Virus record (IMG/VR): IMGVR_UViG_3300012936_003649
Span: 1-64,000 of that record
Length of the DNA stretch: 64,000 nucleotides
From: a virus
Direction: 5' to 3' (one strand)
In this document: positions 35,330 through 54,720 of the stretch, one piece after another
Layout of the letters: each line of letters starts with the position of its first letter
How positions within the stretch are numbered: the first letter of the stretch is position 1
Position numbers and translations under genes: made by a program
Notes under the pieces: model-generated
Databases searched by the model: none
What the model was told of the DNA's origin: nothing
Seen by the model: only the letters and a program-made list of their open reading frames with translations

Positions 35330-36736
35330 ATGACAAACATTAAATACCCATCCGATACCTTCTGCCTTCTTCCCTGGGTGCATTTAAGCACAAGACCAGA
35401 TGGAAGTATGCGAGTTTGCTGTACTGCAAATGCAAGTTCAGTAGGACCTACTAATGACAAAGAGCATGGTGGGCAAGTAGGAATCCTAAAAGATGAACAA
35501 GGAAGACCTAACAATTTAAATGTAAGTGATTTTGAAACAGCATGGAATAGTACATATATGAAGAATGTACGAAAACAAATGCTGAATGGTGAAATGCCAC
35601 CTAGTTGTATTAAGTGTTATAAAGAAGAAGCCGCAGGACATAATTCAAAACGTATGTGGGAAACAGCATATTGGTCTGAGCGTGTTGATGTTGATAAAGT
35701 AATTGCTAATACAGGAGAAGACGGATCAGTGCCTCCACAACTTGCTTATATTGATTTACGTTTCGGTACAAAATGTCAATTAGCGTGTGTAATGTGTAGT
35801 CCGCACGATTCAAGTGGTTGGATTAAAGACTACAAAAAGATTTTTCCGGATGTAAAAAATGAATCTCTAAAAGAAACTATGCAATGGAAAGACAAAGGCA
35901 GTTATAACGGTAGTAGTTATAATTGGCACAAACAAAATCCTACATTTTGGAAACAGTTTTATGAGCAGATGCCTAGTATGCAACAAATTTATTTTGCAGG
36001 CGGCGAAAGTCTTATTATTGAAGAACACTACGAAATACTTGAACATGCTATCAAAATGGGCTATGCAAAAGATTTAGAACTACGTTATAATTCAAATGGT
36101 GTTGAATGGCGTGATGATTTGTTTGACTTATGGAAAGAATTTAAATTAGTACGTTTTCATTATTCAATAGATAGTATTAAAGAAATGAATGATTACATAC
36201 GTTATCCTAGTACTTGGAAACGTCAAGAAGAAGTTTTTCACATACTAGATAATGAAACAAGTAATAATGTAGAAGTAACAGTTGCTTGTGCAGTTCAAGC
36301 ACTAAACATATATTATATTCCTGACTTTATAAAGTGGAAACTTACACAAGGATTCAAAAAAATTAATATGTGGCCTTTTGGTGCAGGCGCTATTAACTAT
36401 CATTTTGTTTATCACCCTCCGCATTTGAATGTTAAAATTTTGCCTAAATGGTTCAAAGAAGAGTGTCGTAAAAAGTACGAAGAATTTTACCCTTGGTGGG
36501 AAGAAAATTGGGAACTAGGTGTTCCTAGTTGGCATAAAGGCAAAGTACCGTATCAAAAATGGCGTGATGCAAGTTATGGTATTAGTAGACTAGAAGGTAT
36601 GCTAAAATTTATGGAAAGCGAAGACTGGAGTAGGCGTTTGCCGGAAATGAAAGAGTTCCTTGACTTATGCGACAAACAGCGTGGAATAACTTTTGCTGAA
36701 ACATTCCCAGAAATGAAGGACATATTCAATGGCTAA
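35330..36736 (+). CDS. Radical SAM enzyme with N-terminal twitch domain
   Basis: FCLLPW...VCC...CIKC then CQLACVMC, AGGES, YSID. Confidence 0.9.
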   Translation: MTNIKYPSDTFCLLPWVHLSTRPDGSMRVCCTANASSVGPTNDKEHGGQVGILKDEQGRPNNLNVSDFETAWNSTYMKNVRKQMLNGEMPPSCIKCYKEEAAGHNSKRMWETAYWSERVDVDKVIANTGEDGSVPPQLAYIDLRFGTKCQLACVMCSPHDSSGWIKDYKKIFPDVKNESLKETMQWKDKGSYNGSSYNWHKQNPTFWKQFYEQMPSMQQIYFAGGESLIIEEHYEILEHAIKMGYAKDLELRYNSNGVEWRDDLFDLWKEFKLVRFHYSIDSIKEMNDYIRYPSTWKRQEEVFHILDNETSNNVEVTVACAVQALNIYYIPDFIKWKLTQGFKKINMWPFGAGAINYHFVYHPPHLNVKILPKWFKEECRKKYEEFYPWWEENWELGVPSWHKGKVPYQKWRDASYGISRLEGMLKFMESEDWSRRLPEMKEFLDLCDKQRGITFAETFPEMKDIFNG

Positions 36737-37925
36737 GCCAATTTGTAGTGCTGTTCAGCATGGATTAGCAATTACAGCATATGGAGCAGTCAATCCATGT
36801 TGTGCTAGTGGTGATTTCAAACACATAACTGAAATAGATAACATAGTTGATTATGTCAGGAATAATAAAGAATTAAAAGATAAACGTGCTATAGAGTATA
36901 CCGATGAATGGATACCAGAATGCACAGGCTGTGATCAAAAATCACGTAAAGGTTTGATATCTCGTAAAGATAAGATGTTAAATTGGTTTCCTTTCGCAGA
37001 TGAACAATGGTCGTTAAAAAACAAAGACACTTACATACACATGGATATAAGTTTTGGTAATACTTGTAGTCAGCAGTGTATTATGTGTAATAGTAATTTT
37101 AGTAGCAAATGGTTGAAGTATGACTTAGAATTAAATGAATCAAACGATAGTCGTAAAAAATTTGCAAGAAATTTTGATATTATGGCTTTAAAAAATTGGA
37201 GTTTAAATTATGAACAATTAGATCAAATTGCAAGTCTTGTATCATATGAGACTAGAATGATAGAAATTAAAGGGGGAGAACCTTTATACGATAAAAGATT
37301 CGATTACTTTGTACAAGCAGTTTTAAAACGTAATCCGAATGTAAAGATTAGCACTAATACCAACGGTATACACTTTAGTAAAAAAACTATTGACATGCTT
37401 AATAATATTAACAGATTAAATGTTGATATAAGTTATGACGGCACTGAAAAAGTATACGAATGGATTAGGTCTAGTAAGTGGGACATGGCTGTAGAAAATT
37501 ATAAAAGATGTTTGTCACATCTGCGCCATTGTCCCACTTTGAATTATACAACTATGATGTATAATGTAGATCATTTTGAAACATTTTATAATTGGGCGGC
37601 AGATATGTCAGAAAAATATGATAGGCGTGTGCCTCTGCATTTTACACAAGTAGTTACAGCACCAAAGCATATAGGACCTGCGTTTGCTTCAAAGGAGCGT
37701 ATAAAAAATGGCATAAGCCAATTAGAAATGATGTATGATGATCCTAGAGATGCAGGCGCAAGTGATAGTGCAATTTATAAACCCCGTATAAAAAACTTAA
37801 TTGCGTTCTTACAAAAGTGCTATGATCAAAAATTAGAAAGCAAAGAAAGTGAAAGGCATGTAGAAGTACATGACTGGTTAACAAAAGTAAGGGGATGGGA
37901 TATAAAAGATTATGCCAACATGTAA
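36729..37925 (+). CDS. Radical SAM enzyme with N-terminal twitch domain
   Basis: ICSA...PCC...CTGC then CSQQCIMC, KGGEP, TNTNG, ISYDG. Confidence 0.9.
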   Translation: MAKPICSAVQHGLAITAYGAVNPCCASGDFKHITEIDNIVDYVRNNKELKDKRAIEYTDEWIPECTGCDQKSRKGLISRKDKMLNWFPFADEQWSLKNKDTYIHMDISFGNTCSQQCIMCNSNFSSKWLKYDLELNESNDSRKKFARNFDIMALKNWSLNYEQLDQIASLVSYETRMIEIKGGEPLYDKRFDYFVQAVLKRNPNVKISTNTNGIHFSKKTIDMLNNINRLNVDISYDGTEKVYEWIRSSKWDMAVENYKRCLSHLRHCPTLNYTTMMYNVDHFETFYNWAADMSEKYDRRVPLHFTQVVTAPKHIGPAFASKERIKNGISQLEMMYDDPRDAGASDSAIYKPRIKNLIAFLQKCYDQKLESKESERHVEVHDWLTKVRGWDIKDYANM

Positions 37926-39072
37926 AGTACCATGGATGACTATTACCTTAGCGGCAAACGGCGGCATAAAGCCGTGTTGTGTCTACGAAGGTGGTGACTG
38001 GAGTATACATAATGGTGATACTTTAGACAGTGCATGGAAAGACATGGATACGTTAAGGCAAAAATTTATAAATGGTGAAAGGCCTAAAGAATGTAGACAA
38101 TGTTGGAAGCGTGAAGCAAGTTTAGGACACAGCCGTAGAACATGGTACGATGATAAAATAGAAGAATGGCCAAATGAATACAAATTAAATCCGCCTATGC
38201 AGTTACGTCATATGGATTTAAACTTTGGTAATACTTGCAATCTAAAATGTCGTATGTGTGGTAGTTGGGGAAGTACAGCATGGTTCAAAGAAGAAGAGAA
38301 ATTAATTGCTATTGATAGAGATTTCCAACGCAGTAGAGGACCAAGACGTCCTACTATTATCCCAGCAAGTTACTGGGAAGATAAAAAAGATATGTTTCAA
38401 TATTTAGAACGTATTGACTTTAAAGGTGGCGAGCCTATGATGCAAGATGGTATGTATGACTTTTTAGAATATCTTGTTGAATGGGGATACGCTCCTAAAA
38501 TTACTATTGCATATACAACCAATGGAACAAAAACACCAGAACGCTTGAAAGACTTGTGGCCTAAATTTAAAAGAGTAAAATTAATTATTAGTGTAGAAGG
38601 TACAGGAAAACTTTACGAATATATCCGTGGAGGAGATGTACAATCATTAGAAAGTTTAAAAGAAAATATTCATTGGTTTGATCAATTTGAAAATTTGCGT
38701 GGTAGTTTCAACAGTGCAATACAGATATACAATATTTTTGATTTGAACAATTTACTTGAATGGTTTAGAGATACTGTTAATGCTAGTAAAAAATGGCATA
38801 GAGATCCTGACACATTTAAATTTGATTGTTTAGTTTCTAGCCCACCTTATTTGAATATTAATATTATGCCAGATGAATTAAAACAAAAAGCAATAGAAAT
38901 TATAGATGAAAAAAACTATAAAAGTCTGCAAACAATTCGTACAGCATTAACTAGGTCGTCTTACAATAATAAGCAATGGGACTTGTTTGTTCGCTTTACT
39001 AATGAACTAGACAAAATGCGTGGCGGTATTCAATGTTTAGATGTTGTGCCACAACTAAAAGGATACATGTAA
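37912..39072 (+). CDS. Radical SAM enzyme with N-terminal twitch domain
   Basis: TCKVPW...PCC...CRQC then CNLKCRMC, KGGEP, TTNGT. Confidence 0.9.
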   Translation: MPTCKVPWMTITLAANGGIKPCCVYEGGDWSIHNGDTLDSAWKDMDTLRQKFINGERPKECRQCWKREASLGHSRRTWYDDKIEEWPNEYKLNPPMQLRHMDLNFGNTCNLKCRMCGSWGSTAWFKEEEKLIAIDRDFQRSRGPRRPTIIPASYWEDKKDMFQYLERIDFKGGEPMMQDGMYDFLEYLVEWGYAPKITIAYTTNGTKTPERLKDLWPKFKRVKLIISVEGTGKLYEYIRGGDVQSLESLKENIHWFDQFENLRGSFNSAIQIYNIFDLNNLLEWFRDTVNASKKWHRDPDTFKFDCLVSSPPYLNINIMPDELKQKAIEIIDEKNYKSLQTIRTALTRSSYNNKQWDLFVRFTNELDKMRGGIQCLDVVPQLKGYM

Positions 39073-40343
39073 TGACTAATCCTAAATTTTCACCTTATAA
39101 TTATTGTGTATATTTGAACAACCAGCCTTATATTGATAACGACGGTATGATTTTTTCATGTTGCAAAAACAGAAAAACACGCCTACCTTACAATATAAAA
39201 GATATGCCACTTATTGATATGTTTAACACTCCTGAGTTTATTGAAACTAGAAAACAAATGGCTGAAGGTATTATGCCATTTGGATGTGAACCGTGTTATA
39301 GTGCAGAAGCAAAAGGTCAAAACAATAGTTTTAGAATAAGAAGTTTGAAGGGTGTGCGTTTCAGAGATCATGGACCTGTTAAAACTTTACCGGAGGGTAT
39401 GGATCAATCAATTTATATTAAACCTTACCCTGACACTAAAATTAGGGCTTTAGATTTGAGATTAGGATCAACTTGCAATCTTACTTGCGTTATGTGTTAT
39501 CCTAGTGATAGTAATAAATGGCATAAAATATTTGAAGATTACGCTAGAACTGTAAACAAAGAAACTGAAAATGCAATAAACATTACAATGAATAGATATG
39601 ATCCTAAAAAACTTAATTGGGCTGAAGATCCTAAAGCATGGGATAATATTTTTTGTAGTATTGATGATGATGTCAAAAGGATATATCTTGCTGGCGGCGA
39701 ACCTTTTTATATTAGAGGATTTGAAGATTACTTGGTAGAATTATACAACAAGTGTCCGCAAGCATTTATAGAAATTAATACAAATGCAACACGCCTACTA
39801 CCTGAAAAATATTTGAAAAAATTAAAAGGAGCAAAATTAGGAATCCGTGTTAGCATTGATGGATTAGGAACAGTAGACGAATATGTACGTCAAGGAACTA
39901 AATGGGATGAAAAAGTACAAGTAATCGATCAATACCAAAAATATTTTGATATAACTAGTTTTGATATTACTGTAAGTTCTTTGAATGTGCATAATTTACC
40001 AGACACGCTTCAATGGATTAAAGACAATTATATTAATGAAAATGAGTTTCCTACAATACTTGTACGTCCTGTTATAAGTCAAAAAGGTTTGAGTATTAAT
40101 GTGCTTCCTTTACATGAACGACAGGAGATATTAAACAGATTAAATGCACTATTAGACAATTGGCCTAATTATAAGCGTAAACTTAATATTAATGAAGTTA
40201 TTGCTAAATTGTCTGAAGAACAAGTAGATGAAATTGATAAACTAGGAAGGATTATAAATTTTTGGGAAAAGTCGTCAAAAATAAGTTACGAAAATATCAA
40301 TCCAAAATTAATAAGGTGGGTACATGCAAACAGTAGCAGTTGA
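39072..40343 (+). CDS. Radical SAM enzyme with N-terminal twitch domain
   Basis: Start re-called at ATG 39072 (TAATG overlap); YCVY...SCC...CEPC then CNLTCVMC, AGGEP, SIDG. Confidence 0.9.
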   Translation: MTNPKFSPYNYCVYLNNQPYIDNDGMIFSCCKNRKTRLPYNIKDMPLIDMFNTPEFIETRKQMAEGIMPFGCEPCYSAEAKGQNNSFRIRSLKGVRFRDHGPVKTLPEGMDQSIYIKPYPDTKIRALDLRLGSTCNLTCVMCYPSDSNKWHKIFEDYARTVNKETENAINITMNRYDPKKLNWAEDPKAWDNIFCSIDDDVKRIYLAGGEPFYIRGFEDYLVELYNKCPQAFIEINTNATRLLPEKYLKKLKGAKLGIRVSIDGLGTVDEYVRQGTKWDEKVQVIDQYQKYFDITSFDITVSSLNVHNLPDTLQWIKDNYINENEFPTILVRPVISQKGLSINVLPLHERQEILNRLNALLDNWPNYKRKLNINEVIAKLSEEQVDEIDKLGRIINFWEKSSKISYENINPKLIRWVHANSSS

Positions 40344-41076: not shown

Positions 41077-41437
41077 TACTTTAAAAAATCAAAACAAAGC
41101 AGGAAGTTTTGTCAATGTTGCAACTATACAAGAGCGAGAAGAAGGGTTGACAAAGGTTGAAGAAAATGTTAACGATATATTAGTAAGAAAAGAAAATGAA
41201 TACATTGATTGGTTATGTTGGAGCGGTCAAGAAAGTTTGTTTATTAGAGATAACGGCGATGTTTTCAATGCAACATGTAGAGTAAAGTATTTAGGTAATA
41301 TATATGATGATTTTGATATTCCGACTGAACCAATTATTTGCAAAAAACAATGGTGTGCTTGTGCCGCCGACTTAAATACTTCTAAAGCAAAAGATGTAGA
41401 GTCAGCAAAATATTTAAGGATAAACAATGGAACTTAG
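41063..41437 (+). CDS. Stand-alone SPASM/twitch-like Fe-S domain, C-terminal part of the split radical SAM
   Basis: WLCWSG...GDVFNATC...LGNI...IICKKQWCACAAD aligns with WRCNAG...GSVKRSYSC...LGNI...TCITKSCVSSAD of 54721..55851. Confidence 0.8.
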   Translation: MPVYNTLKNQNKAGSFVNVATIQEREEGLTKVEENVNDILVRKENEYIDWLCWSGQESLFIRDNGDVFNATCRVKYLGNIYDDFDIPTEPIICKKQWCACAADLNTSKAKDVESAKYLRINNGT

Positions 41438-42044
41438 TCAAAGATGGAAAAATAGACGTACCGAAAGATGGTTTTCGGATGCTGATGTTGAAGAAGAAAA
41501 AATTAAAAAACTTTGTGATGTTATACCACATATTCCTTCTCAACAAAGTATTGTAGATCATTATTGGTGTTGCTTTTCCAAAGATGAAAAAGAAATGAGA
41601 GATTTTTTATTTTATCACGTTTTCTTATCTAAAAAAGGTTTTGATCGCAATCATGTTGACGATGACATTCTTCATTTTGGAAGTATACTGACTGCTCCCT
41701 ACGTGCTTGTAGGATTACATAGAAGTGGTATGCCCTCACATAATGATATAGGATTGCACACTGGTGTTTTATTAGCAACTGCATTAGAATTAGAACTTGA
41801 TGTTGCAACAATGGGATGTCAAGCAGGATTTGTAAAAGTTAAAAAATTCAACAAACTTATTAGAAAACATAGAAACATACCGGACAAAAATCATCTTATT
41901 CCAGTAATGGCAGTTTGTGTTGGATATAAAGAAAGACATCCTAAAGAATATTTTTATTTAGAAGATGGAACTAGAGTGAACACACAACTATCAGTTGATA
42001 GAGATAGAAAACCAAATAATTTTGTAGGAAAACATGAGCAATAA
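41427..42044 (+). CDS. Nitroreductase-superfamily flavoprotein
   Basis: RRTERWF FMN-binding start, PSQQ, APYVL, DIGLHTGVLLATALELELDVATMG, AVCVGY. Confidence 0.7.
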   Translation: MELSQRWKNRRTERWFSDADVEEEKIKKLCDVIPHIPSQQSIVDHYWCCFSKDEKEMRDFLFYHVFLSKKGFDRNHVDDDILHFGSILTAPYVLVGLHRSGMPSHNDIGLHTGVLLATALELELDVATMGCQAGFVKVKKFNKLIRKHRNIPDKNHLIPVMAVCVGYKERHPKEYFYLEDGTRVNTQLSVDRDRKPNNFVGKHEQ

Positions 42045-43308
42045 AGATAAAGCATTAAAAAGTGATACGTTTTGCTTGTTGCCTTTCATACATATGGCAA
42101 CAAAAACCGATGGCGATATGAAACTATGCTGTCGCAGTTGGCCTGTAGGTAATATAAATGAAACCACAATGAAAGAATTATGGAACAGCGACAAATATAA
42201 AGAAGTAAGACGTATGATGCTTGATGGAGAAAGACCAAAAGAATGTGATGCTTGTTGGCGACAGGAAGATATTGGTGTAAGAAGTATGCGACAGCGTTAT
42301 AACAAAACTAGAACCAAAAAATATTTGTCTCGGTTAGATAATATGTCTGATGATTACACAATGCCTTTTGAAATTCCTGTGCTAGAATCTAAACTTAGTA
42401 ATTTTTGTAATTTAAAATGTCGCATGTGTCATCCACTTGATAGTACAAGTTGGAGTAAAGACTGGGAAACAATTGAACACTTAATGGAAAAAGCCAACGG
42501 AAGTACTTTTAGAAAAGTTCGTGAATTTGGACTGACAAGAAAGCCTTACATAAGTGGCTGGGAAAAGAATGATGAATTTTGGAAAGAGTTTGAAGAACTT
42601 GCTCCGCACTTTGAGCGTATAGAATTTGCTGGAGGAGAACCTTTGATTGATCCTATACATTATCGTATTTTAAATATTCTTAAAAAATATGGAAGTAATA
42701 TAGAATTAAAGTATAGTACTAATCTTACAAAACTAAACTATAAAAAAGATGATGTTATGGAGTTATGGAATCACTTCAAAGGCGTGGAGGTGATGATTAG
42801 TATTGATGGTGTTGACGATGTTTACAATTATATTAGGCAACTAGGTGATTATGAAATTGTAAAAAAGAATATTTTAAAAGTTGTTGATCATCCTAAGGTA
42901 GTTAAAATAGCAGGCGCTTGTACATTCCAAGTATACAATATTTTTAGTATGCCTGAAATTTTTGATCAATTTACAGAAGATCTCAACATAGATATTCATG
43001 CACATAGAGTAAACTATCCAACGTTTTTAGATATGAGATTGATACCTGATAGTGTAAAACAACCGTTGACAAAAAAACTTGAAGATTATGTAGACACTAT
43101 TGAAAACAAAACACATTCAAATTGGACCGAAGAAAGAAAACAAAATGCGATCAAACACGGCAAGGATAATATTGCCGCACTTAATGGAGGTTCTTTGACT
43201 AAAGAGATTCCAGCATTTATTGAATTTAGTGATAGATTAGATCACAAACAAAAAGTAGTAAAAGATTGGAAAGAATTACTTCCAGAATTAGCAAAGGAAA
43301 TAATATGA
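42034..43308 (+). CDS. Radical SAM enzyme with N-terminal twitch domain
   Basis: FCLLPF...LCC...CDAC then CNLKCRMC, AGGEP, SIDG. Confidence 0.9.
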   Translation: MSNKDKALKSDTFCLLPFIHMATKTDGDMKLCCRSWPVGNINETTMKELWNSDKYKEVRRMMLDGERPKECDACWRQEDIGVRSMRQRYNKTRTKKYLSRLDNMSDDYTMPFEIPVLESKLSNFCNLKCRMCHPLDSTSWSKDWETIEHLMEKANGSTFRKVREFGLTRKPYISGWEKNDEFWKEFEELAPHFERIEFAGGEPLIDPIHYRILNILKKYGSNIELKYSTNLTKLNYKKDDVMELWNHFKGVEVMISIDGVDDVYNYIRQLGDYEIVKKNILKVVDHPKVVKIAGACTFQVYNIFSMPEIFDQFTEDLNIDIHAHRVNYPTFLDMRLIPDSVKQPLTKKLEDYVDTIENKTHSNWTEERKQNAIKHGKDNIAALNGGSLTKEIPAFIEFSDRLDHKQKVVKDWKELLPELAKEII

Positions 43309-44702
43309 TAAGTCAAAAAGCACAGGCAGAAAGACTAGTAAGAAATAATGGAATTATGGTTGCATATGTTGATAGTCATGATACCAGATATAAAGATCCT
43401 TTTATTGAAATGGTCTCAAAAAATATTGCGGAATTTAATACACTTGATTTAAGACAATTAGAACAAAAAGTAATTACAACGACATCTTATTTAGATGCTT
43501 TGCATATAGCACAAAGACAAGGCTGTAAACATTTGTTGTATGTGGAGTTAGGTACTGTTATAGATTGGTGTGACGGTCCTATGAAAGATATTGTTGCTTT
43601 TATTAGATCATATCCGGATAGTAAATTTTTCGGACATATTTTACAACATGCAAACGGATCGTTTTATATACACCCACAGTTTTTTGTAATAGATGTCGAG
43701 TGGGCAATGGAAAACAATATAAGAAGGATTGAGGAAGAAAATCCTAAAATTAAATGGAATGCACCTGTATTTGAAAGGAGCGTTAGTCACTTCCATGATG
43801 GATATACACCTCATTGGGTAAAGATCGGTGAGAAAAAACGTTCTAAAGTCAGAGGACAAGGCAAAGGTTGGAACATTCTAGATGCAATATTTGAAACTGA
43901 CAGTGAAATGCAAGTTTGGCCAGAACATATACGCAATGCTAAAAAGTTTCTTTATCCTACAGTAAAAGAAGAGTGTGTAAAAAATAAAGCAGTAATTTTT
44001 AGCGAAATGAATACAAATAGAGTATATGTCGCTAATACTGAAGAAATCCAGTATGAGAAATATTCTCGTATTTTAGATCATCATGATATAAAATGTGTCG
44101 CTACTCCTGCAAGTGGGTTAAGTACTTTCTTGCTTCCTTTTTATGCACGGGCAGAAAAAACACTTGCATATGATATAAACATTATGTCTTTACATATGAT
44201 CGAACTAATGACAGAAGAATGGGACGGAACTAATTTTAAAGATTTTATAAACACAAGAGTTGTAACTCACCGTGCGTTAGAATCAGTATATAAAGCGAAA
44301 GATGTACATCTAGAAAATGCAGATGCTTTACTTAAAAGTTTTGGAGATGAATGGGTTGATTGGTGGAGAACCAGAGGTAAAAATTCAATTACTACTAAGC
44401 AAATAGATATTTTCAATCATCATACATGGTATAATTTTAAAAATCATTTAATGGGCAACCATGTTACATTGTTAAATATTAGTAATATTATGCACTATGC
44501 ACCTTCTGCAACTTTATTTAATACACAACAAAGAATAGATATATTAAAAAATTTACATAGTTATATTACAACAAATGTTATGAACAAAGAAAATTTACTT
44601 ATACATGGTAGAAGCCCTACTGAAAGTGACCATCCTATTTATGGGTATTTTCGAGAAAGAGATATTGTAAGTAATATAGTATTTCCATGGAGGAGAAATT
44701 AA
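43305..44702 (+). CDS. Hypothetical enzyme (possible N-terminal GT-like and C-terminal methyltransferase-like regions)
   Basis: Start re-called at ATGA overlap 43305; YIHPQFFVID, FHDGYTPHWV, then ATPASG...LAYDIN Rossmann-like pattern. Confidence 0.5.
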   Translation: MISQKAQAERLVRNNGIMVAYVDSHDTRYKDPFIEMVSKNIAEFNTLDLRQLEQKVITTTSYLDALHIAQRQGCKHLLYVELGTVIDWCDGPMKDIVAFIRSYPDSKFFGHILQHANGSFYIHPQFFVIDVEWAMENNIRRIEEENPKIKWNAPVFERSVSHFHDGYTPHWVKIGEKKRSKVRGQGKGWNILDAIFETDSEMQVWPEHIRNAKKFLYPTVKEECVKNKAVIFSEMNTNRVYVANTEEIQYEKYSRILDHHDIKCVATPASGLSTFLLPFYARAEKTLAYDINIMSLHMIELMTEEWDGTNFKDFINTRVVTHRALESVYKAKDVHLENADALLKSFGDEWVDWWRTRGKNSITTKQIDIFNHHTWYNFKNHLMGNHVTLLNISNIMHYAPSATLFNTQQRIDILKNLHSYITTNVMNKENLLIHGRSPTESDHPIYGYFRERDIVSNIVFPWRRN

Positions 44703-45403
44703 TGGAAGAAATTAGAGAAATAATTAGACGTAATGCAAATATAATACACAATGAACATATTCCACCTATTCCAGAAGAGTTTAGAGATGGAAAAAATGAT
44801 GCTAAGTTCTGTGATTGGATTATAAGTCATAGCATGTTGCCATCTTTTCCTTTAGATATTGAAATTCCACACGAAGAAATGTATAAAGAAGCAATGGCGC
44901 AAAAGCATCGATTTGTAAAACATAGAGGTAGTAGCAGTCCGGGCTGGTCCAGTATGGCGATCCATGGCACAGCAGTACATCATACTTCACCGAGAGAAAA
45001 TTATTTTGAACAAGACAATATGCCAGAGTATGATTGGACTGAACTTGCAGACCTATGTCCAATTACAAAACAGTGGTTACAAAATTTAGGATTCAAAAAA
45101 TATCAAAGAGTGCGTTTCATGTTACTTGATCCTGGAGGTTACATCAATCCTCACAGAGATGTTGATGTGAGAAAACTTCATGCTTGGAACGTGGCAATAA
45201 ATAATCCTGTAGGACATAAATTTGTCTTAGATGGACACGGAATAATTCCTTGGAAAGTCGGCGAAGTTAGAGGTATTGATATATCTCAACTGCATACTGT
45301 AGTCAATGATGGTGTAGAACCAAGACTACACATGATTATACACGGCCACTTTGATGAAGGAATAGCAAAGACTATTTGCAGGAGTTATGAAAAGTTGGTA
45401 TGA
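44702..45403 (+). CDS. Aspartyl/asparaginyl beta-hydroxylase-like 2OG-Fe(II) oxygenase
   Basis: Start at TAATG overlap after GGAGGAG; RVRFMLLDPGGYINPHRD...LHTVVNDGVEPRLHMI. Confidence 0.85.
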   Translation: MEEIREIIRRNANIIHNEHIPPIPEEFRDGKNDAKFCDWIISHSMLPSFPLDIEIPHEEMYKEAMAQKHRFVKHRGSSSPGWSSMAIHGTAVHHTSPRENYFEQDNMPEYDWTELADLCPITKQWLQNLGFKKYQRVRFMLLDPGGYINPHRDVDVRKLHAWNVAINNPVGHKFVLDGHGIIPWKVGEVRGIDISQLHTVVNDGVEPRLHMIIHGHFDEGIAKTICRSYEKLV

Positions 45404-46902
45404 CAAAATACGATATTGCTTTAGTAAGTACACCAGTTATGGAGACAAATGTGCCTGCGCCTGCAATCTATTATTTGAAAGGCGCATTAAATCCGCATGG
45501 CTTCAAAACAAGATGTTTCGACTTAGTACGAGATAGTGAAGAGTATTTTGGCAAAGAGGAAAACAAACAAGTAAACAGTTATTTACTTGCTGATTGGCAT
45601 GCTGGCATGCACACAGTAAAGAAAGATAAAGAAATTTATGATATGATTGTTGACTATTACAGAGATTATGTAGTAGAGCGTATTGCTCCCACGCAAGCAG
45701 AATGGGTTGGAATAAGTGTGTTCAGTCAAAACAGTCAAAAATCATCTCATATACTTTGCAAAGTAGTACGTGAAGTTATGCCTGACGCTAAAATTATATT
45801 GGGAGGCACAGGACTTGGCATTAGTATGGGAGGTAAAAAAACATTCGGTACTAGGTTAATTGAAGAAGGATATGCTGATTACTTTATTGACGGAGAAGGA
45901 GAAAACGCTCTTGTTGCATTATTAAAAGGAGATACATCCTATCCAGGTATTAATAGTACACAATATAAACAGATTGACAAAATAGATGATATTCCCTTTC
46001 CTGATTACAGTGACTACCAAGAAGATTACGGCGATATAACTAAAATTACCCTAACTGGGTCACGTGGGTGTGTAAGGCGTTGTAGTTTTTGTGATATAGG
46101 AGCATTTTGGAAAAAGTTTAGATTTAGAAGCGGTGAAAATATTGCAAAGGAAATGATTAGAAATAAAAAAGAATATAATTCAAAAACATACTTCTTTTCA
46201 GATAGTCTAATAAATGGTAGTATGAAAGCGTTTAGAGACCTATGTGTCGTATTAGCAGACTACCATGAAAAACATCCTAAAATTAAAGATAGGATTAAAT
46301 GGGGCGGACAATTTATTATACGTAGTGAAAGACAAAGTCCTGCTTCGGATTATGAATTAATGGCTAAGGCAGGAATGACTTGGGCTAGTATTGGTATTGA
46401 AAGTGCAAGCGAAGATGTTCGCAATCATATGGACAAGCAATTTAGTAATGAGGACATGTATTTTAGCATTGATCAACTTATTAAAAATGGTATAGGCGTT
46501 ACAGCAATGTTCATTGTAGGTTATCCAACTGAAACATTAGAAATGTTTGATGAAAACATAAAATTTTTAAAATACTATGCAGATAGAAATAGTTCTAAGT
46601 ATACAAGGAATGGATTAGATCCAGGAGACTATGGTTGTATCAGAGATATTAATTTAGGACAAACGTTGGGTGTGTTAGACGATAGTCCATTAGCATCAAT
46701 GACTGACGATTTTGAAGGTAAAGACACTTGGGTATCTAAAACAGTAGAAGGACTAGATTTTGAAGAGCGTGTACGTAGGAGAAAAAAACTTTCAAGAGTT
46801 GCAAATGCATTAGGATATAATGTACGTTGGGATGAAAAACAATTACACTTTTTAAATAAAAAATTAGAAGATTGGAAACAAGAAGGGAAACCTATAAGAT
46901 GA
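45400..46902 (+). CDS. Cobalamin-binding (class B) radical SAM enzyme
   Basis: B12-binding region VGISVF...IILGG...DGEGE; SRGCVRRCSFC; GIESAS; FIVGYPTET. Confidence 0.9.
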   Translation: MTKYDIALVSTPVMETNVPAPAIYYLKGALNPHGFKTRCFDLVRDSEEYFGKEENKQVNSYLLADWHAGMHTVKKDKEIYDMIVDYYRDYVVERIAPTQAEWVGISVFSQNSQKSSHILCKVVREVMPDAKIILGGTGLGISMGGKKTFGTRLIEEGYADYFIDGEGENALVALLKGDTSYPGINSTQYKQIDKIDDIPFPDYSDYQEDYGDITKITLTGSRGCVRRCSFCDIGAFWKKFRFRSGENIAKEMIRNKKEYNSKTYFFSDSLINGSMKAFRDLCVVLADYHEKHPKIKDRIKWGGQFIIRSERQSPASDYELMAKAGMTWASIGIESASEDVRNHMDKQFSNEDMYFSIDQLIKNGIGVTAMFIVGYPTETLEMFDENIKFLKYYADRNSSKYTRNGLDPGDYGCIRDINLGQTLGVLDDSPLASMTDDFEGKDTWVSKTVEGLDFEERVRRRKKLSRVANALGYNVRWDEKQLHFLNKKLEDWKQEGKPIR

Positions 46903-47573
46903 GGAATATTGAAACATGGAAATCACGCTATACTGTAAAACAGTTTACAGATAAAGAAATTGATTTAGAAGATATGGAATACTTAACAGACCTATTTGAA
47001 TATATTCCTATTCAACAAGGATTGCTAAGTCATTTTTGGTTAAGATTAGGTCCTGAAGAGCAGGATTTTAAAACATTCTTGTATGAAAAAGTTTTTCATA
47101 TGAAAGATAAATCTGAACATATGTATGCTGTTGCTTCATCACCTTATGTATTTCTAGGAGTATATCATCAGCAAGGACTTGTTGGAAAAGGTGGAAGGAT
47201 GTCTCATGTTTCTGAACATGAAGCAATTATAAATCTTGGATTTCATGGAGGAGTGTTATTAAGCGAAGCACTACACTTAGGATACGATGTTTCACAAGTT
47301 GCTTGTCAAGAAGGCATAAACAAAAATTGGCCTGAATTCAATCAACGTGTAAGAGATTTTTTGTCTGAAGAAGATGTTAAAAAATTAATGTTTCATCCTG
47401 CTAGATTACCCAAGGTAGACTTCCATCCAAAATTAGTCATTTGTATTGGTAAAGGTTTACCTTTAACGGAAAATGTTAGTACTGTAATAAGAGATGGTTT
47501 TCCAGCCAAGGTACATCAAAAACCTAAAAAACCTGCAACTAATCTTGTATTAAGGAAACCTGCGAATGAATAA
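46899..47573 (+). CDS. Nitroreductase-superfamily flavoprotein
   Basis: Start re-called at ATGA overlap; SRYTVKQF, SPYVF, NLGFHGGVLLSEALHLGYDV, VICIG; paralog of 41427 gene. Confidence 0.7.
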   Translation: MRNIETWKSRYTVKQFTDKEIDLEDMEYLTDLFEYIPIQQGLLSHFWLRLGPEEQDFKTFLYEKVFHMKDKSEHMYAVASSPYVFLGVYHQQGLVGKGGRMSHVSEHEAIINLGFHGGVLLSEALHLGYDVSQVACQEGINKNWPEFNQRVRDFLSEEDVKKLMFHPARLPKVDFHPKLVICIGKGLPLTENVSTVIRDGFPAKVHQKPKKPATNLVLRKPANE

Positions 47574-48732
47574 TAAAACCTTTTGTATTTTGCCTTGGAT
47601 GCACCTTGCTACAAACGCAAGTGGTAATCTGCGTGTGTGTTGTAATAGTACACCAGGCAAAAATTTTATTACAAAAGAAGATGGTACTCCTTATAAATTG
47701 CACAGAGACAATATGCAAGAAGCATGGGAAAGTGAAGTTTATAAAGTTATTAGAAAACAATTATTGAATGGCGAACGTCCTGAAATGTGTACACGTTGTT
47801 TCCGTGAAGAAGATGTAGGTATTAAGAGTGCTAGGCAAGCATGGAATGACAAATGGATGCAAGACAAAGAATATACAATGGACGCACCATTTGATATCAA
47901 GTATGTGGACCTAAGATTAAGCAATTTATGTAACCTTAAATGTAGAATGTGTAATCCTTATGCTTCAAACATGTGGGTAAAAGAATGGGCAAGTGTTGAC
48001 AATGCACTTAGTGAAAGTGAATACAAACGTCTTAGTAGAATGGATTGGCCTGAAGAAGAAAAAACTTGGGAAAATTTATTCAGTATTGCACACACTGTTG
48101 AAGAAATATATTTGACAGGTGGCGAACCTACAGTTATAAAAAAACAGCAAAAGTTGTTAGACTATTTTATAGAAAACGGTACTTCTAAAAATATACGATT
48201 AAAATATAATACAAACTTAGTAAAAGTTCCTCCTTGGTTGTTAGATAGATGGACACACTTCAAGCGTGTGCAACTTAATTGTTCAATAGACGCAGTAGGA
48301 GAATTAGATCGTTATATTAGACATCCGAGCAAATGGGAAGTTATTGTTAAGAATTTTGAAACTGTCAGACAATTACCTAATGTAAATATTGAAATACATT
48401 GTACAGTACAAATGTATAACATACTTCGGTTACACGAACTAGTTAAGTGGGCAAAACCTTATGGGCATAAAATATATTTAAACATACTTAATCATCCTGA
48501 ATACCTAAATGTAAGAGTGTTACCTAAACATCTTAAAGATCAAGCAAAAGAATTTTTACAAGAACATCTTGATATACCTAAGATGCAAGGATTGATTGAT
48601 TATATGTATGCAGAAGACTGGAGCAAAAAACTTCCAGAATTTTTCAAATATACAAATACATTAGATAAGTCACGCAACGAGAACTTATTTAAAATATTAC
48701 CGGAGTTTGATCTTGAAGTATCTAGTTACTAG
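47566..48732 (+). CDS. Radical SAM enzyme with N-terminal twitch domain
   Basis: FCILPW...VCC...CTRC then CNLKCRMC, TGGEP, SIDA. Confidence 0.9.
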   Translation: MNNKTFCILPWMHLATNASGNLRVCCNSTPGKNFITKEDGTPYKLHRDNMQEAWESEVYKVIRKQLLNGERPEMCTRCFREEDVGIKSARQAWNDKWMQDKEYTMDAPFDIKYVDLRLSNLCNLKCRMCNPYASNMWVKEWASVDNALSESEYKRLSRMDWPEEEKTWENLFSIAHTVEEIYLTGGEPTVIKKQQKLLDYFIENGTSKNIRLKYNTNLVKVPPWLLDRWTHFKRVQLNCSIDAVGELDRYIRHPSKWEVIVKNFETVRQLPNVNIEIHCTVQMYNILRLHELVKWAKPYGHKIYLNILNHPEYLNVRVLPKHLKDQAKEFLQEHLDIPKMQGLIDYMYAEDWSKKLPEFFKYTNTLDKSRNENLFKILPEFDLEVSSY

Positions 48733-49426
48733 TGGATGTAGTTTTACAGCGTATGAGCGTTGCTGGCCATATCGTTTAGTAGAACAATTAGGCAAAATAA
48801 ATTATACCTTAATTAACGATGCTGAAGGCAGTAGCGGAAATGCTATGATTCATAGAAGGATTATCTATCAAGTAGGAAAACTGTTAGCACAAGGTATAGA
48901 TAAAGATGATATTTTAGTTGGAGTTATGTGGAGTGGTGCAAATAGGCATAATATACATGATGAAAAAATAGAACGCATAGGAAAGGATGATGTAAATCCT
49001 TATTATTGGCCTGAAGAAGGAGGCAGAGGTGCTTGGGAAATTTTTTGTGCTACAAATTCTTCAAGGAAAGTAATGTGGTATTATCAACATGTTTTTAGTT
49101 ACTATCAAAGCGTTTTAGAAACTTATGAATATATTAATCATTTACAAAATTATTTACAAATGAAAGATGTAAAATATTTCATGTGTCCTTACATGGACGG
49201 TTGGGACTATGAAGGTTTTCATGATAATGATGATCCATATATTCGTATGCTTGTAGACAGTATTGATTATAGTAAATGGCCAACAAAGCAAGGTCAATGG
49301 GAATGGGTTAAGGAGAACTATGCAAATCTTAAATTGGCTAACCCTAAACATCCAGGACCAGAGCAAAACAATCTTTGGGTTGAAAAAGTAATAATTCCTT
49401 GGCTGAAAGAAAATAATTATGTCTAA
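48707..49426 (+). CDS. SGNH/GDSL hydrolase-like protein
   Basis: Block I SGCSFT, block II GSSGN, C-terminal KHP; TTG start (48713 also possible). Confidence 0.7.
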   Translation: MILKYLVTSGCSFTAYERCWPYRLVEQLGKINYTLINDAEGSSGNAMIHRRIIYQVGKLLAQGIDKDDILVGVMWSGANRHNIHDEKIERIGKDDVNPYYWPEEGGRGAWEIFCATNSSRKVMWYYQHVFSYYQSVLETYEYINHLQNYLQMKDVKYFMCPYMDGWDYEGFHDNDDPYIRMLVDSIDYSKWPTKQGQWEWVKENYANLKLANPKHPGPEQNNLWVEKVIIPWLKENNYV

Positions 49427-50597
49427 TGTATTTTGTCCATTGCCTTGGAATCACTTATTCGTAAGAGCAAACCAAGATGTCTTTCCTTGTTGTGAAACTA
49501 ATTTAGTAAGTACAAAGTTTGACGAGTCTATTGAGAAGACAGCCAATCATCCTGTGTTTAATAAATTTAGATTAGATATACTAAATGGTTCAAAACTACC
49601 TCCAGAATGTCGTTCTTGCGAAATAAAAGAATTAGCAGGAAAACAGAGTCTTAGATTAGTTTCTTTAAAACACCACAGTACTATGAACAAAGAAAAAGCA
49701 CAAGCAATTACACAGCCAGATGGAAGTGTGCGTAATTTTAAATTAGAAAGATTAGACATTCGTAGTAGTAACTTGTGTAATTATAAGTGTAGATTCTGTG
49801 GGATTATAAGTAGCAACAGTTGGCTTAACGATCATAAGTTATTAGGTTATGAAGTTGAAAAATCGTACGATAAAAAAACTGGCATCGCTGAATTTGAATT
49901 GCCGTGGGAAGATCTAAAACAGCATCTGCCGTATGTAAAAGAAGTTAAACTTGCTGGTGGCGAACCAGTAATGATGCCAGGAACTTATCAACTACTTGAA
50001 GAATTAATTTCTATAGGCAATACAGATGCAAAAATAGTGCTTATAACAAATGCAAGTATGGCTAATTATGGCAATAAAAATATTATTGAATTGATTAAAA
50101 AATTTAAACGTTCAGTAATTATGTTAAGTGTTGATGGTATAGGACATGCCCATGAATGGTTGAGATCAGGTAAAAGTGATTGGCTAAAAGTAAAACAAGT
50201 TATAAAAGATTATACTTCTTTTGCAAACTATGATTCAGTTCATTTTCACGTAGGAGTATCTTGGATGAATATGTGGCATCTAGAAAAGTTTGTAAGAGAA
50301 TATCCTAATCATAAATTTATATTCAACCCGGTAACTGATCCTGCTATATATTCTATTGCTAGGTTTCCTAAAGAACAAGTTAATCTTGCGGCAGAACACT
50401 ACAAAAAATTGTACAGTAAAGAAGGTCAAAATCAGTGGCTTGCAATTTATAATATGTTACATGCTATGGCAAACAAAGACGCAGGCGAATTTGATCAGAA
50501 GGAGTTTGTTCGTGTAACAAATTTGTTAGATACTAGTAGGAAACAAGATTTCAGAAAAGCATTTCCTGAACATGCAAAGGTATTATTACATGGATAA
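49419..50597 (+). CDS. Radical SAM enzyme with N-terminal twitch domain
   Basis: FCPLPW...PCC...CRSC then CNYKCRFC, AGGEP, SVDG. Confidence 0.9.
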   Translation: MSNVFCPLPWNHLFVRANQDVFPCCETNLVSTKFDESIEKTANHPVFNKFRLDILNGSKLPPECRSCEIKELAGKQSLRLVSLKHHSTMNKEKAQAITQPDGSVRNFKLERLDIRSSNLCNYKCRFCGIISSNSWLNDHKLLGYEVEKSYDKKTGIAEFELPWEDLKQHLPYVKEVKLAGGEPVMMPGTYQLLEELISIGNTDAKIVLITNASMANYGNKNIIELIKKFKRSVIMLSVDGIGHAHEWLRSGKSDWLKVKQVIKDYTSFANYDSVHFHVGVSWMNMWHLEKFVREYPNHKFIFNPVTDPAIYSIARFPKEQVNLAAEHYKKLYSKEGQNQWLAIYNMLHAMANKDAGEFDQKEFVRVTNLLDTSRKQDFRKAFPEHAKVLLHG

Positions 50598-51798
50598 GAC
50601 AGCGTATTGCCCAATGCCATTTGTTACTCTTACTGTAAACCCAACAGGTGTTATAACTCGTTGTATGATGAGTATGAAAACAATGGGCTCTATTTCAAAA
50701 AATACATATAGCAATGCAGAATTTCAAACATTAAGAAAAAATATGCTTAATGGTATTTGGGATGAAAAAGGTTGCGAGTCTTGTAAAAATGCAGAAGACA
50801 ATGGTAGGTGGAGCCAAAGATTAAAATGGCTAGATAGAGAAGAAAAATATTTAGGAGAAACAGGCATATATGAAGCCAATACAAATATTGTCAAAAATGA
50901 CATACACCATTTGTACATGAACTTTAATAATATTTGTAATTTTAAATGTAGAATGTGCGGTCCACATTTTAGTAATGCATGGATACCAGATCATAATAAA
51001 TTAGCAGAAGCAACAAAAACAACTAGACCTTGGTTAGAAAATTCAATGTCAAAACAAAGAATTGACATAGACAATTTTTTTGATCAGTTTGGTGATATGA
51101 TTTCAAACCTAAAACAGATTTGGATAACTGGCGGTGAACCATTTATAGATAATTCTATATATGATTTTTTTGAGCAGTTAAAAAAATATACAAATTTAAA
51201 AAATATAAAAGTGCTTATTAATACTAATGCAACAAAAGTAGATCCCCAAAAACTCATTCCTCTTATGAATGTAAAGCAATTAGCATTAAATATTAGTGTT
51301 GACGCAACAGGAAAATTATTTCCTTACATGCGTGGATATAACTATTCTTTTGATGATATAGATGCTAAAATTAGGAGTATATGCAAGTTGAAAAAAAGTT
51401 ACAAAAATTTTCAAGTGCAAGTAAATGCGGCTTACCAAATATTTAATATACTTAATGTTGAAGATTTTTTTAATTGGGCAAGTGAAATATTAGAAGATGA
51501 AACAGCAGGCTTAGTAGAATACAGAACTTTGCATGGTCCGCCTTTTTTGAGAGCAAGGAATGCACCTAAAGCAATCAAGTATGATGCATTGTTAATGCTA
51601 GAAAGACTTGTAAAACGTTTTCCAAATAATAATTATTTTCCAGATATGATAAAAGAAGTTAAACAACAACAAGATAAAAAAGATTTGGATGATTTTGTTT
51701 TATGGAACAAAAAATTAGATGAAATACGTAGTGAACATTTAGTAAAAGCATTTCCAGAACTTGTAAAATGTTTTAATAACGAAGGTCTTAGAATATGA
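50590..51798 (+). CDS. Radical SAM enzyme with N-terminal twitch domain
   Basis: Start probably ATG 50590; YCPMPF...RCM...CESC then CNFKCRMC, TGGEP, SVDA. Confidence 0.9.
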   Translation: MDKTAYCPMPFVTLTVNPTGVITRCMMSMKTMGSISKNTYSNAEFQTLRKNMLNGIWDEKGCESCKNAEDNGRWSQRLKWLDREEKYLGETGIYEANTNIVKNDIHHLYMNFNNICNFKCRMCGPHFSNAWIPDHNKLAEATKTTRPWLENSMSKQRIDIDNFFDQFGDMISNLKQIWITGGEPFIDNSIYDFFEQLKKYTNLKNIKVLINTNATKVDPQKLIPLMNVKQLALNISVDATGKLFPYMRGYNYSFDDIDAKIRSICKLKKSYKNFQVQVNAAYQIFNILNVEDFFNWASEILEDETAGLVEYRTLHGPPFLRARNAPKAIKYDALLMLERLVKRFPNNNYFPDMIKEVKQQQDKKDLDDFVLWNKKLDEIRSEHLVKAFPELVKCFNNEGLRI

Positions 51799-52898
51799 CA
51801 ACACGTTGGTGTCAAGCAGGAAAGAACCATATTTGGTTAAGGCAGGATTGGACTATTCAATTATGTTGTAGTCTTGTTGGTGATACTTGGGATCATCAAA
51901 TGAAATTAGACAACCCCAAACATCTATTTAGAGTGCTTGCAAAACATTGGCCAGAAACTTATAAAATATTAGAAAAAGAACCATTACCAAAAGGCAAGTG
52001 TGCTATTTGTATTTCTGAACAAGAAATGCATGGTACAAGTCAAAGAACAAAAATTAATGAATTAACTAATGATGGTAAAAAGTTTTTTTTAAAGATAGAC
52101 TTTAGTAATAAATGTAATTTAAAATGTACAATGTGTTCTAGCAAAAGATCAACTGGCTGGATCAAAGATGAACAAAAGATGAATAAGGCTCTTGAGGGTG
52201 ATAGACGTTTAGAATTGCCTATAGCAGGGCATGAGACACTCGGATCAGAATGGTTTAAACAAATTCCAATTGAATGGTTTAAAAATTTAGGAGCGGTAGA
52301 AATATCGGGAGGTGAACCATTATATCAAGAAGATGCATTAGAATTTTTAGAATTCTTATCAATAGAAGTTCCTGATATACAAATGCGTATTATAACAAAC
52401 ACAACTCTTGTAGATGACAAAATTTTAACTATGCTAGGTAGATTTTCTAGACTACGTGTGCTTTGTAGTATAGATGCATGGGAAAATGATTGCTATCAAT
52501 ATGTAAGAGGAGGTGTGTATGAACTTCCTCAAATTAAAGAGAACATTATTAAACTTGCAAAAACTGTAAGTGGCAATGTTGCTGTTGCCGACACAATACA
52601 TCCTGCTAATTACAATCAATATGACCTTGGTGCAAAATTTATAGAAAAATTAAATAATGATTACAGTCCAAAACGTCCTGTAAGATATAGTTGGAGTTAT
52701 GTATCCAAGCCATTACATTTAAATCCTAGGACAGTATTGCCTGAAGAATTTGTTCCTGGTGAGAAAAACATAGCAGAACAAAAACTATTTTATAGGTTTA
52801 CATCTAACTTAGACAAAATTAGAAAGCAAAACATATTAGACATAAGACCAGAATTTGAATCTTGGTGGAATGAAATGGAAAAATTATGCAAACATTAG
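51795..52898 (+). CDS. Radical SAM enzyme with N-terminal twitch domain
   Basis: WCQAG...LCC...CAIC then CNLKCTMC, SGGEP, SIDA. Confidence 0.9.
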   Translation: MTTRWCQAGKNHIWLRQDWTIQLCCSLVGDTWDHQMKLDNPKHLFRVLAKHWPETYKILEKEPLPKGKCAICISEQEMHGTSQRTKINELTNDGKKFFLKIDFSNKCNLKCTMCSSKRSTGWIKDEQKMNKALEGDRRLELPIAGHETLGSEWFKQIPIEWFKNLGAVEISGGEPLYQEDALEFLEFLSIEVPDIQMRIITNTTLVDDKILTMLGRFSRLRVLCSIDAWENDCYQYVRGGVYELPQIKENIIKLAKTVSGNVAVADTIHPANYNQYDLGAKFIEKLNNDYSPKRPVRYSWSYVSKPLHLNPRTVLPEEFVPGEKNIAEQKLFYRFTSNLDKIRKQNILDIRPEFESWWNEMEKLCKH

Positions 52899-54690: not shown

Positions 54691-54715
54691 CAGTTTATTA
54701 CAAAGGTGCTATAAT
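54687..54715 (+). promoter_or_regulatory. Perfect sigma70 promoter TTGACA-N17-TATAAT with extended -10; leaderless start
   Basis: TTGACA 54687-54692, TGcTATAAT ending 54715, ATG at 54721. Confidence 0.8.
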
Positions 54716-54720
54716 ACGTT

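Follow-up and report, generated by a model that had tools for sequence, protein, structure and literature searches.

The closest described relatives of the genes reported here are radical S-adenosylmethionine (SAM) enzymes with a SPASM or twitch domain. A SPASM motif holds seven or eight cysteines and binds two auxiliary clusters. In enzymes of the SkfB/CteB type the auxiliary domains are C-terminal, and in BtrN, the butirosin radical SAM dehydrogenase (4M7S/4M7T), the twitch domain likewise follows the core. The reverse order has a name in NCBIfam, NF033640 (N_Twi_rSAM), so the N-terminal-twitch architecture is already known; this entry is a computational subfamily without an assigned reaction, and its model is silent on arrays, phage carriage, and cassette turnover. 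Here, we analyzed nine genes of this kind at positions 35330 to 52898 of the first 64 kb (64,000 nt; hereafter, the window) of IMGVR_UViG_3300012936_003649, a 78,974-bp IMG/VR record. A sequence-only reading of the window had noted them as a nine-member expansion of strongly diverged radical SAM enzymes, perhaps acting as an assembly line or a diversifying repertoire. Our best overall explanation, with a probability of roughly 0.5, is that they lie in a hypervariable tailoring island behind the tail-fiber genes of an uncultured marine jumbo myophage and act there on sugars or glycans by radical chemistry.

All nine open reading frames (ORFs) were open at full length on the + strand at the positions first noted, and no stop codon or lost motif was seen in any of them. 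NF033640, with the twitch domain first and the core behind it, was the best family for each (135-422 bits, E 1e-39 to 1e-126), other families reaching about 40 bits at most, and the match was full-length, covering model positions ~1-398 (3-324 for the last gene). Its curated cut-off of 170 bits was passed by seven paralogs (222.9-422.4 bits): paralog 1 (35330..36736, 468 aa, 422.4 bits), which is the lineage-conserved core copy; the variable paralogs 3 (37912..39072, 386 aa, 299.3 bits), 4 (39072..40343, 423 aa from the ATG at 39072 in an ORF open from 39033, 222.9 bits), 5 (42034..43308, 424 aa, 364.2 bits), 7 (49419..50597, 392 aa, 289.3 bits), and 8 (50590..51798, 402 aa from 50590 in an ORF open from 50572, 249.5 bits); and the partly conserved paralog 6 (47566..48732, 388 aa, 405.4 bits). 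Two further variable copies, paralog 2 (36729..37925, 398 aa, 156.8 bits) and paralog 9 (51795..52898, 367 aa, 135.4 bits), scored below the cut-off, with NF033640 still leading the next family by about 98-124 bits; paralog 2 keeps all seven cysteines, and paralog 9 is the most divergent of the set. A six-frame search of the whole record returned the same nine genes, along with four weak core-only matches to other radical SAM genes. The strong divergence noted earlier was borne out by pairwise identities of just 17-33%, and since the maximum is 32.7%, recent tandem duplication was rejected as the origin of the array. Membership of all nine in NF033640, with the Fe-S architecture of that family, is in our view nearly certain; the copies are intact and diverged from each other long ago.

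The domain order was equally consistent. Pfam Radical_SAM scored above its cut-off in every paralog, and a SPASM/twitch match lay ahead of the core, at residues ~4-97, in eight of the nine at E<=0.01 and in five over the gathering score (for paralog 5, 45.4 bits at residues 14-75); in those eight, the Radical_SAM match began at about residue 103. No Pfam SPASM match was obtained for 51795, whose four N-terminal cysteines align nonetheless, and no other Pfam family exceeded its cut-off in any of the nine. The residues invariant across the nine-paralog alignment (35330 numbering) were C12, C30, C93, C96, C149, C153, C156, S161, W164, G224, G225, and E226. The motif set listed in the sequence-only reading was thus largely upheld, with CxxC, CxxxCxxC-x4-S-x2-W, and GGE(P/S) present in 9/9; two of its elements proved less general, CC being kept in 8/9 (50590 alone has CM, so that a fifth, adjacent auxiliary cysteine occurs in 8/9) and C-x2-P(W/F) in 6/9, as it is missing from 36729, 39072, and 51795. 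The same cysteine, GGE, N, S, and R positions were invariant or nearly so in a 124-sequence alignment of the family. The available part of RadicalSAM.org likewise reports N-terminal conserved cysteines, without structures, for some members of its SPASM/twitch cluster.

When the PDB was searched with a profile of the nine N-terminal domains, the sole significant match was the BtrN twitch domain (4m7s residues 166-237, E 1.7e-5), followed by zinc fingers at E>0.02. The four invariant N-terminal cysteines align one-to-one with BtrN chain positions 169, 187, 232, and 235 (4m7s), which we take to be the residue numbers of the auxiliary-cluster ligands. Because four cysteines align with four ligands, each paralog is predicted from its sequence to bind one fully Cys-ligated auxiliary [4Fe-4S] cluster in its N-terminal twitch domain, in keeping with the earlier recognition of that domain. 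The available sections of PMC9012708 describe four Cys ligands for the auxiliary [4Fe-4S] cluster of BtrN, which carries out a two-electron oxidation of an aminocyclitol, and three Cys with an open iron site for that of MoaA, and they regard fully ligated, low-potential auxiliary clusters as likely electron acceptors. The likeness to BtrN is confined to the twitch domain: that domain precedes the core in 9/9 phage paralogs and follows it in BtrN, the cores match weakly, and the twitch region was BtrN's only match when a full-length profile was used. The best PDB matches of the full-length profile were SkfB, GDGT-MAS, CteB, BlsE, viperin, and MoaA. With SkfB, CteB, GDGT-MAS, BlsE, and MoaA the paralogs share the radical SAM core (E 2.6e-13 to 1e-5) and auxiliary Fe-S cysteines, whereas their own auxiliary domain, with four conserved cysteines, is N-terminal. 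This reverses the domain order underlying the current picture of SPASM/twitch enzymes. The nearest clusters in the ESM Atlas were viral copies of the NF033640-type family.

The comparison of related viral loci revealed that one of the nine genes is conserved and the others are not. Pattern scans of IMG/VR, which need shared exact 8-mers and therefore undercount diverged orthologues, found 257 loci encoding close relatives of 35330 (84-99% identity for the best 80), against 0-9 per variable paralog: two relatives each for 36729 (76% and 59%) and 37912 (80% and 78%), six for 50590 (47-55%), one for 51795 (74%), no close relative for 39072, and no stretch matching the 49419 patterns. The nine loci for 42034 comprised two at >=70%, one 75-residue fragment at a contig end (99%), and six at only 25-29%. 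Orthologues of 47566 occurred at 71-74% in three of ten sampled relatives and at 74-81% on two contigs binned into metagenome-assembled genomes (MAGs). Among the best 80 of the 257 loci, 42 had both 10-kb flanks, and tblastn recovered 35330 at >=70% identity in 42/42 of them; the upstream radical SAM gene at 33017 was recovered at >=50% identity in 39/42, on the same strand in 39/39 and 12-5,429 nt upstream of the core copy. By contrast, every gene from 36729 to 46902, including paralogs 36729, 37912, 39072, and 42034 and their neighbors, reached >=50% identity in 0/42. The family itself was never absent: each 21-kb locus held 2-8 members (median 5), and copies were found in 20/20 longer related records (2-11 each). 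In a tree of 79 of the 82 hidden Markov model (HMM) matches from the window and ten relatives (three outside 330-560 aa were dropped), built by a quick search that leaves deep nodes weak, 35330 fell in a tight 11-member clade, 47566 had orthologues in three relatives, 42034 paired with one 41%-identical copy, and the other six sat on long branches (0.88-1.88) without close partners.

One 15-kb mosaic contig carried the core copy at 93%, paralog 2 at 76%, and paralog 3 at 80%, with the first 75 residues of paralog 5 (99%) close behind paralog 3 at the contig end; this contig lacks paralog 4 as well as the genes at 40324-42034. For the six paralogs with a comparable orthologue, the ratio of nonsynonymous to synonymous substitutions (dN/dS) was 0.05-0.23, a rough figure since dS was >=1: 0.05 for 35330 (against the related locus L005), 0.14 for 36729, 0.08-0.09 for 37912, 0.11-0.12 for 42034, 0.23 for 50590, and 0.13 for 51795. 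These ratios indicate that the genes are maintained. The gene 35330 and the upstream 33017 form the conserved anchor of the island, with exchangeable cassettes behind, and the non-core copies are strain-specific cassettes under purifying selection. As only 35330 is conserved (42/42 vs 0/42), the nine amount to one strain's own selection out of a very large gene pool in which other phages share. The first suggestion of a diversifying repertoire fits these data, and a fixed assembly line does not, as gene content and order differ between close relatives.

The setting of the array is that of a phage. Upstream of it lie a baseplate-wedge gene (phrog_10646, 1,020 bits), a 4,953-aa ORF, and three tail-fiber-like genes; the window has 30-37% GC, and its + strand carries nearly all genes. 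CheckV rates the record 22% complete, so the genome of this uncultured marine jumbo myophage is roughly 350 kb. A published parallel is found in pelagimyophages, of which two similar genomes differ by added radical SAM cassettes in a variable "host recognition cluster" by the tail fibers (PMC7029224). The pattern is the same as in the present island, and the available text of that paper gives the cassettes no family assignment or function. The phage itself is of another kind, as its baseplate wedge protein has its closest counterparts in the jumbo phages SCTP-2, Atu_ph07, and PA5oct (36-37% identity), not in pelagimyophages. Phages of an abundant marine lineage give 10-17 kb to such arrays, which are swapped like surface-antigen cassettes.

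The DNA itself is real. A single 11,504-nt contig from an independent 2025 run spans 37177-48680 with 7 differences, and an assembly artefact was rejected on this ground. The sequence was present in near-identical form, with half or more of the sampled words, in 16 marine metagenome runs, and any part of the stretch in 20 runs from 11 studies dated 2014-2025; no RNA data sets were among the listed holder runs, and a megablast search of the whole stretch against cultured phages gave zero matches. Short joints in the run contigs, with sides of 20-33 letters, were taken as cross-matches among paralogs or relatives and not as rearrangements. In four independent runs, contig depth summed across the core paralog (35330-36501) was ~2-5x that of the rest of the stretch, which would fit many genotypes sharing just that gene; depth cannot rank genes, and it was left unused.

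Outside phages, the family forms similar arrays. A pattern scan of GTDB species genomes gave 335 encoding stretches; it rested on a single peptide pattern that may bias the taxonomic sample, in which Bdellovibrionota accounted for 44 of the best 76 bacterial loci by title count. At least two copies within +-7 kb were found in 48/76 loci, with up to seven copies, and 6/76 showed none, possibly because ORF picking favored overlapping spurious ORFs. Considering that viral relatives hold 2-11 copies as well, the nine-member expansion does not stand out as special to this genome. By way of example, a Bdellovibrionales chromosome (L173) carries seven tandem copies in one 15-kb stretch, and a gene pattern of ~580, 586, [425], and [456] aa recurs in five loci (L176, L191, L198, L202, and L212). 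Among sampled bacterial genomes, the family was rare, occurring in 4/400 of Bacteroidota (E<=1e-30) and 2/400 of Pseudomonadota, besides one MAG with a phage-like contig.

Bacterial contexts provide the strongest indications of a substrate. Conserved flanks around a variable middle are the usual layout of O-antigen loci, and one bacterial locus of the ABC-transporter-dependent type, on the Zetaproteobacteria MAG contig PFXI01000076, sets four tandem family members among RmlC, RmlD, Wzm, a TylF-type and a second methyltransferase, and a WbsX glycosyltransferase. The first of these copies belongs to an 854-aa ORF (L113:8579-11143) that joins a Wzt ATPase, Wzt_C, and the N-terminal-twitch radical SAM enzyme, and three more copies follow it. 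In a second Pseudomonadota locus, a copy lies ~1.2 kb from a glycosyltransferase family 2 (GT2) gene and ~2.8 kb from a nucleoside diphosphate (NDP)-sugar epimerase/dehydratase gene. Of 74 long homologues, two fuse a methyltransferase, the radical SAM enzyme, and a WbsX glycosyltransferase (P0317 and P0321), while TPR repeats occur in two. The isolate cyanobacterium Synechocystis salina LEGE 00031 encodes a 1,597-aa protein (L169:6119-10909) that combines a sulfotransferase, a family member with 28% identity to 35330 (E 7e-38), and an aminotransferase of class III, which resembles glutamate-1-semialdehyde (GSA) aminomutases as well as aminoglycoside C-6' aminotransferases (E 2e-25 to 1e-19). 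This fusion is followed by a further family member of 559 aa, and a similar 1,606-aa ORF occurs at locus L190. Closer to the window, an NDP-sugar-type epimerase/dehydratase gene lies 1.4-2.2 kb from a family copy in all four viral relatives examined for it (G001, G002, G004, and G005), and three of these four have a short DegT-like ORF in the island. The accessory set of the window, with its Asp/Asn-hydroxylase-like cupin, B12-binding radical SAM enzyme, DUF6071 protein, two GDS-motif paralogs, and methyltransferases, resembles the bacterial neighborhoods. On these grounds we hold, with moderate confidence, that the substrate is a sugar or glycan.

Several observations weigh against a glycan substrate. 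Unlike O-antigen loci, the phage island lacks Wzm/Wzt, and NDP-sugar genes were not recognised in its record, in which Pfam models for GT2, NDP-sugar short-chain dehydrogenases/epimerases, and DegT gave 0 matches, and the upstream fusion at 29430 returned sub-threshold DUF matches only. The Wzt fusion is represented by one protein cluster (P0271). Our neighbor tally, which covered 23 of the 76 bacterial loci chosen for long contigs and taxonomic spread (87 neighbors of 150-950 aa within 2.6 kb and 6 long fused matches), showed the commonest families other than radical SAM to be GT2 (6 of 93 proteins), methyltransferases (3), carbamoyltransferase (2), and sulfotransferase (2), so glycan families are a minority. 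At four Bacteroidota loci (40 proteins), PhyH dioxygenases were commonest (5), ahead of methyltransferases and GDSL proteins (3 each), with one GT2, carbamoyltransferase, polysaccharide deacetylase, and B12-binding radical SAM protein each; PhyH enzymes fit small-molecule pathways too. The class IV aminotransferase, AMP-binding enzyme, and IMPDH-like genes downstream of the array would suit a small metabolite equally, the best full-length PDB matches cover the generic core and do not discriminate among substrates, and the chemistry we propose is drawn by analogy from the cluster ligation of one distant homologue. Literature searches found no radical SAM step in O-antigen synthesis and, with supplementary files excluded, no paper assigning a reaction to N-terminal-twitch radical SAM enzymes, which agrees with the earlier statement that the family exists without assigned chemistry; two Xanthomonas papers that were considered concern unrelated radical SAM genes.

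It is unlikely that what the enzymes make during infection is instead a small, diffusible product, for instance an aminocyclitol, an aminoglycoside-like compound, or another tailored metabolite. BtrN, to which alone the twitch domain shows significant structural relatedness, does belong to an aminoglycoside pathway, and the double resemblance of the aminotransferase in the cyanobacterial fusion, the class IV aminotransferase, AMP-binding enzyme, methyltransferases, and B12-binding radical SAM enzymes of the island, and the PhyH dioxygenases, carbamoyltransferase, and WelO5-like protein beside Bacteroidota members would all be at home in such a pathway; the available text of a 2025 cyanophage paper also speculates on "antibiotic synthesis genes," including one radical SAM "maturase" (PMC12801897). 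However, the Wzt/Wzt_C and WbsX fusions and the O-antigen locus point to polymer-bound sugars, the island adjoins tail-fiber genes, its cassette turnover among close relatives resembles that of surface-antigen loci, and the window yielded no recognisable gene for an exporter, for resistance, or for a scaffold synthase. The adjoining tail-fiber and baseplate genes, with their 4,953-aa ORF, could suggest that the enzymes modify proteins or peptides, by cross-linking, epimerising, or maturing giant fiber proteins or a RiPP-like peptide (RiPPs being peptides made on the ribosome and modified after translation). Most SPASM/twitch enzymes studied so far act on peptides or proteins. Asp/Asn beta-hydroxylase-like genes are present, SkfB is the best PDB match to the core, TPR repeats occur in some family members (3/9 long representatives scanned), and many of the weak secondary NCBIfam matches are peptide maturases. 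These secondary matches score 15-40 bits against cut-offs of 131-650, though, and the paralogs have four auxiliary cysteines, not seven. RiPP maturases come with a precursor gene and a peptide-recognition domain; Pfam recognised no such domain in the nine paralogs, and all gene junctions from 35330 to 54690 overlap, leaving no room for a precursor gene. Bacterial members, moreover, occur in O-antigen-type or GT-rich contexts without fiber genes. We therefore give a protein or peptide substrate slightly less weight than a diffusible metabolite.

That lipids (whether lipid A or those of membranes), nucleotides, or DNA are the target seems very improbable. GDGT-MAS, an archaeal lipid C-C synthase, ranks second among the PDB matches (E 4e-10), and enzymes like viperin match too, yet these similarities are limited to the shared radical SAM core (query ~100-306). 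The cupin at 44687 matches Asp_Arg_Hydrox, a family that presumably also includes the lipid A hydroxylase LpxO, and Vibrio phage K566 has a PagP-annotated gene ~6 kb from its radical SAM run; no lipid or nucleotide-metabolism family, however, recurs among the neighbors.

If a sugar or glycan is indeed the substrate, each enzyme would make a 5'-deoxyadenosyl radical and abstract hydrogen from a sugar residue or a sugar-like glycan precursor, and the glycan could be on the virion or on the infected cell. The auxiliary cluster would take the second electron, as proposed for BtrN, and the resulting keto position could then be aminated, reduced, methylated, or acylated by neighboring enzymes, for which the methyltransferases, aminotransferase, 2-oxoglutarate (2OG) oxygenase-like, SGNH-like, and flavoprotein-like proteins are candidates. 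BtrN is paired with an aminotransferase in 2-deoxystreptamine synthesis, and the fusion of a radical SAM enzyme with an aminotransferase in S. salina fits the same logic of oxidising and then transaminating. Both the proposed substrate class, a carbohydrate-like secondary alcohol, and the role of the cluster as an electron sink are modeled on BtrN as described in the available sections of PMC9012708, and we put forward a BtrN-like two-electron oxidation only tentatively; epimerisation or C-C chemistry may be the outcome instead. Different paralogs would serve different residues or positions, so that a cassette swap would change the product. Extended to the whole island, this leads to a speculative picture that we consider rather doubtful: a combinatorial set of tools, exchanged horizontally, for oxidising the C-H bonds of sugars without oxygen, in which the anchor pair 33017 and 35330 starts the pathway, each cassette paralog oxidises a different glycan position, and the surface sugars of the phage or of its host are re-coded between strains. 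Such a system would be the phage equivalent of O-antigen serotype loci and would work by a radical chemistry undescribed for glycans. A glycan substrate would in itself define a new class of radical sugar-editing enzymes and explain part of the hypervariable "host recognition" regions of marine myophages.

The remaining genes of the island are arranged closely around the nine paralogs, with no gap from 35330 to 54690. The conserved partner of paralog 1 (33017..34099, +) is a radical SAM gene of conventional order (Pfam Radical_SAM); it had been read as a classical C-terminal SPASM/twitch enzyme, and its C-terminus is indeed Cys-rich, although no SPASM/twitch profile matches it. Antisense between 33017 and 35330 lies a gene for an alginate-lyase-like lipoprotein (34100..35233, -; Pfam Alginate_lyase 31.5 bits), the translation of which contains MKKIVPLILSTVLLTGC. 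As this gene occurs in 0/42 related loci and the gap within the pair varies from 12 to 5,429 nt, the 33017/35330 junction looks like an insertion hotspot. Behind paralog 4 follow, all on the + strand, a short radical SAM gene (40324-41076; Radical_SAM 64.8 bits), a small Cys-rich ORF (41063-41437) with a weak match to the C-terminal part of NF038073, and, directly upstream of paralog 5, a gene for a nitroreductase-like protein (41427..42044; Pfam Nitroreductase 21.2 bits, below the cut-off of 23.5). Four accessory genes (43266..47573, +) separate paralogs 5 and 6. They encode an unassigned 478-aa protein, the Asp/Asn-hydroxylase-like cupin (44687; Asp_Arg_Hydrox 41.2 bits), a B12-binding radical SAM protein (45400; Radical_SAM 67.6 bits and B12-binding 30.2 bits), and, directly upstream of paralog 6, a second nitroreductase-like protein (46872-47573) recognised by its homology to 41427-42044 (28% identity, E 4e-26), with no Pfam Nitroreductase match. 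A conserved, duplicated module of nitroreductase-like and N-terminal-twitch genes was considered and rejected, because an upstream homologue was found for 1/2 paralog-5 and 0/5 paralog-6 orthologues.

Paralogs 6 and 7 are separated by a DUF6071 gene (48707..49426, +; 44.2 bits). Paralog 9 is followed by the last part of this overlapping gene run on the + strand (52886..55851), which opens with two paralogous genes (52886-53767 and 53764-54690; 26% identity, E 4e-20), whose products begin with G(L/I)FGDS(F/Y)V and match no Pfam or NCBIfam family; this start presumably resembles the block-I motif of SGNH/GDSL hydrolases. A further radical SAM gene at 54721 (Radical_SAM 59 bits) ends the run, and a third nitroreductase-like gene lies on the - strand at 55829-56617. 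The island continues through 56673-63795 with a second Asp/Asn-hydroxylase-like gene (22.0 bits, just below the cut-off), a class IV aminotransferase, a methyltransferase, a second B12-binding radical SAM enzyme, an IMPDH/GMP-reductase-like gene, and a fragment of an AMP-binding enzyme.

When 1.84 billion clusters of 50% identity were searched with the nine-paralog profile, 58,147 representatives matched at E<=1e-3 and 7,724 still did at E<=1e-30, including two- and three-copy fusions; the family is thus large and catalogued, with no published reaction found. Two contigs from MAGs labeled Crocinitomicaceae and Gammaproteobacteria (L101/L102) carry 7 and 11 copies, at 74-81% to paralog 6, and since they look like phage of the same lineage binned with bacteria, they give no host evidence. 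Against cultured phages, tblastn with paralog 6 gave only distant matches, at 20-25% identity in 37 records. Most of these are Vibrio phages and Ralstonia phage RsoM2USA, and the annotations, "radical SAM" or "hypothetical," offer no function that could be transferred. In the KVP40-like Vibrio phage K566 (OZ196521.1, 161548-167037), five places in a run of radical SAM and hypothetical genes match paralog 6 at 20-25%, and K567 shows the same; together with the S. salina fusion and the bacterial O-antigen locus with its Wzt fusion, these two phages offer tractable entry points to the family.

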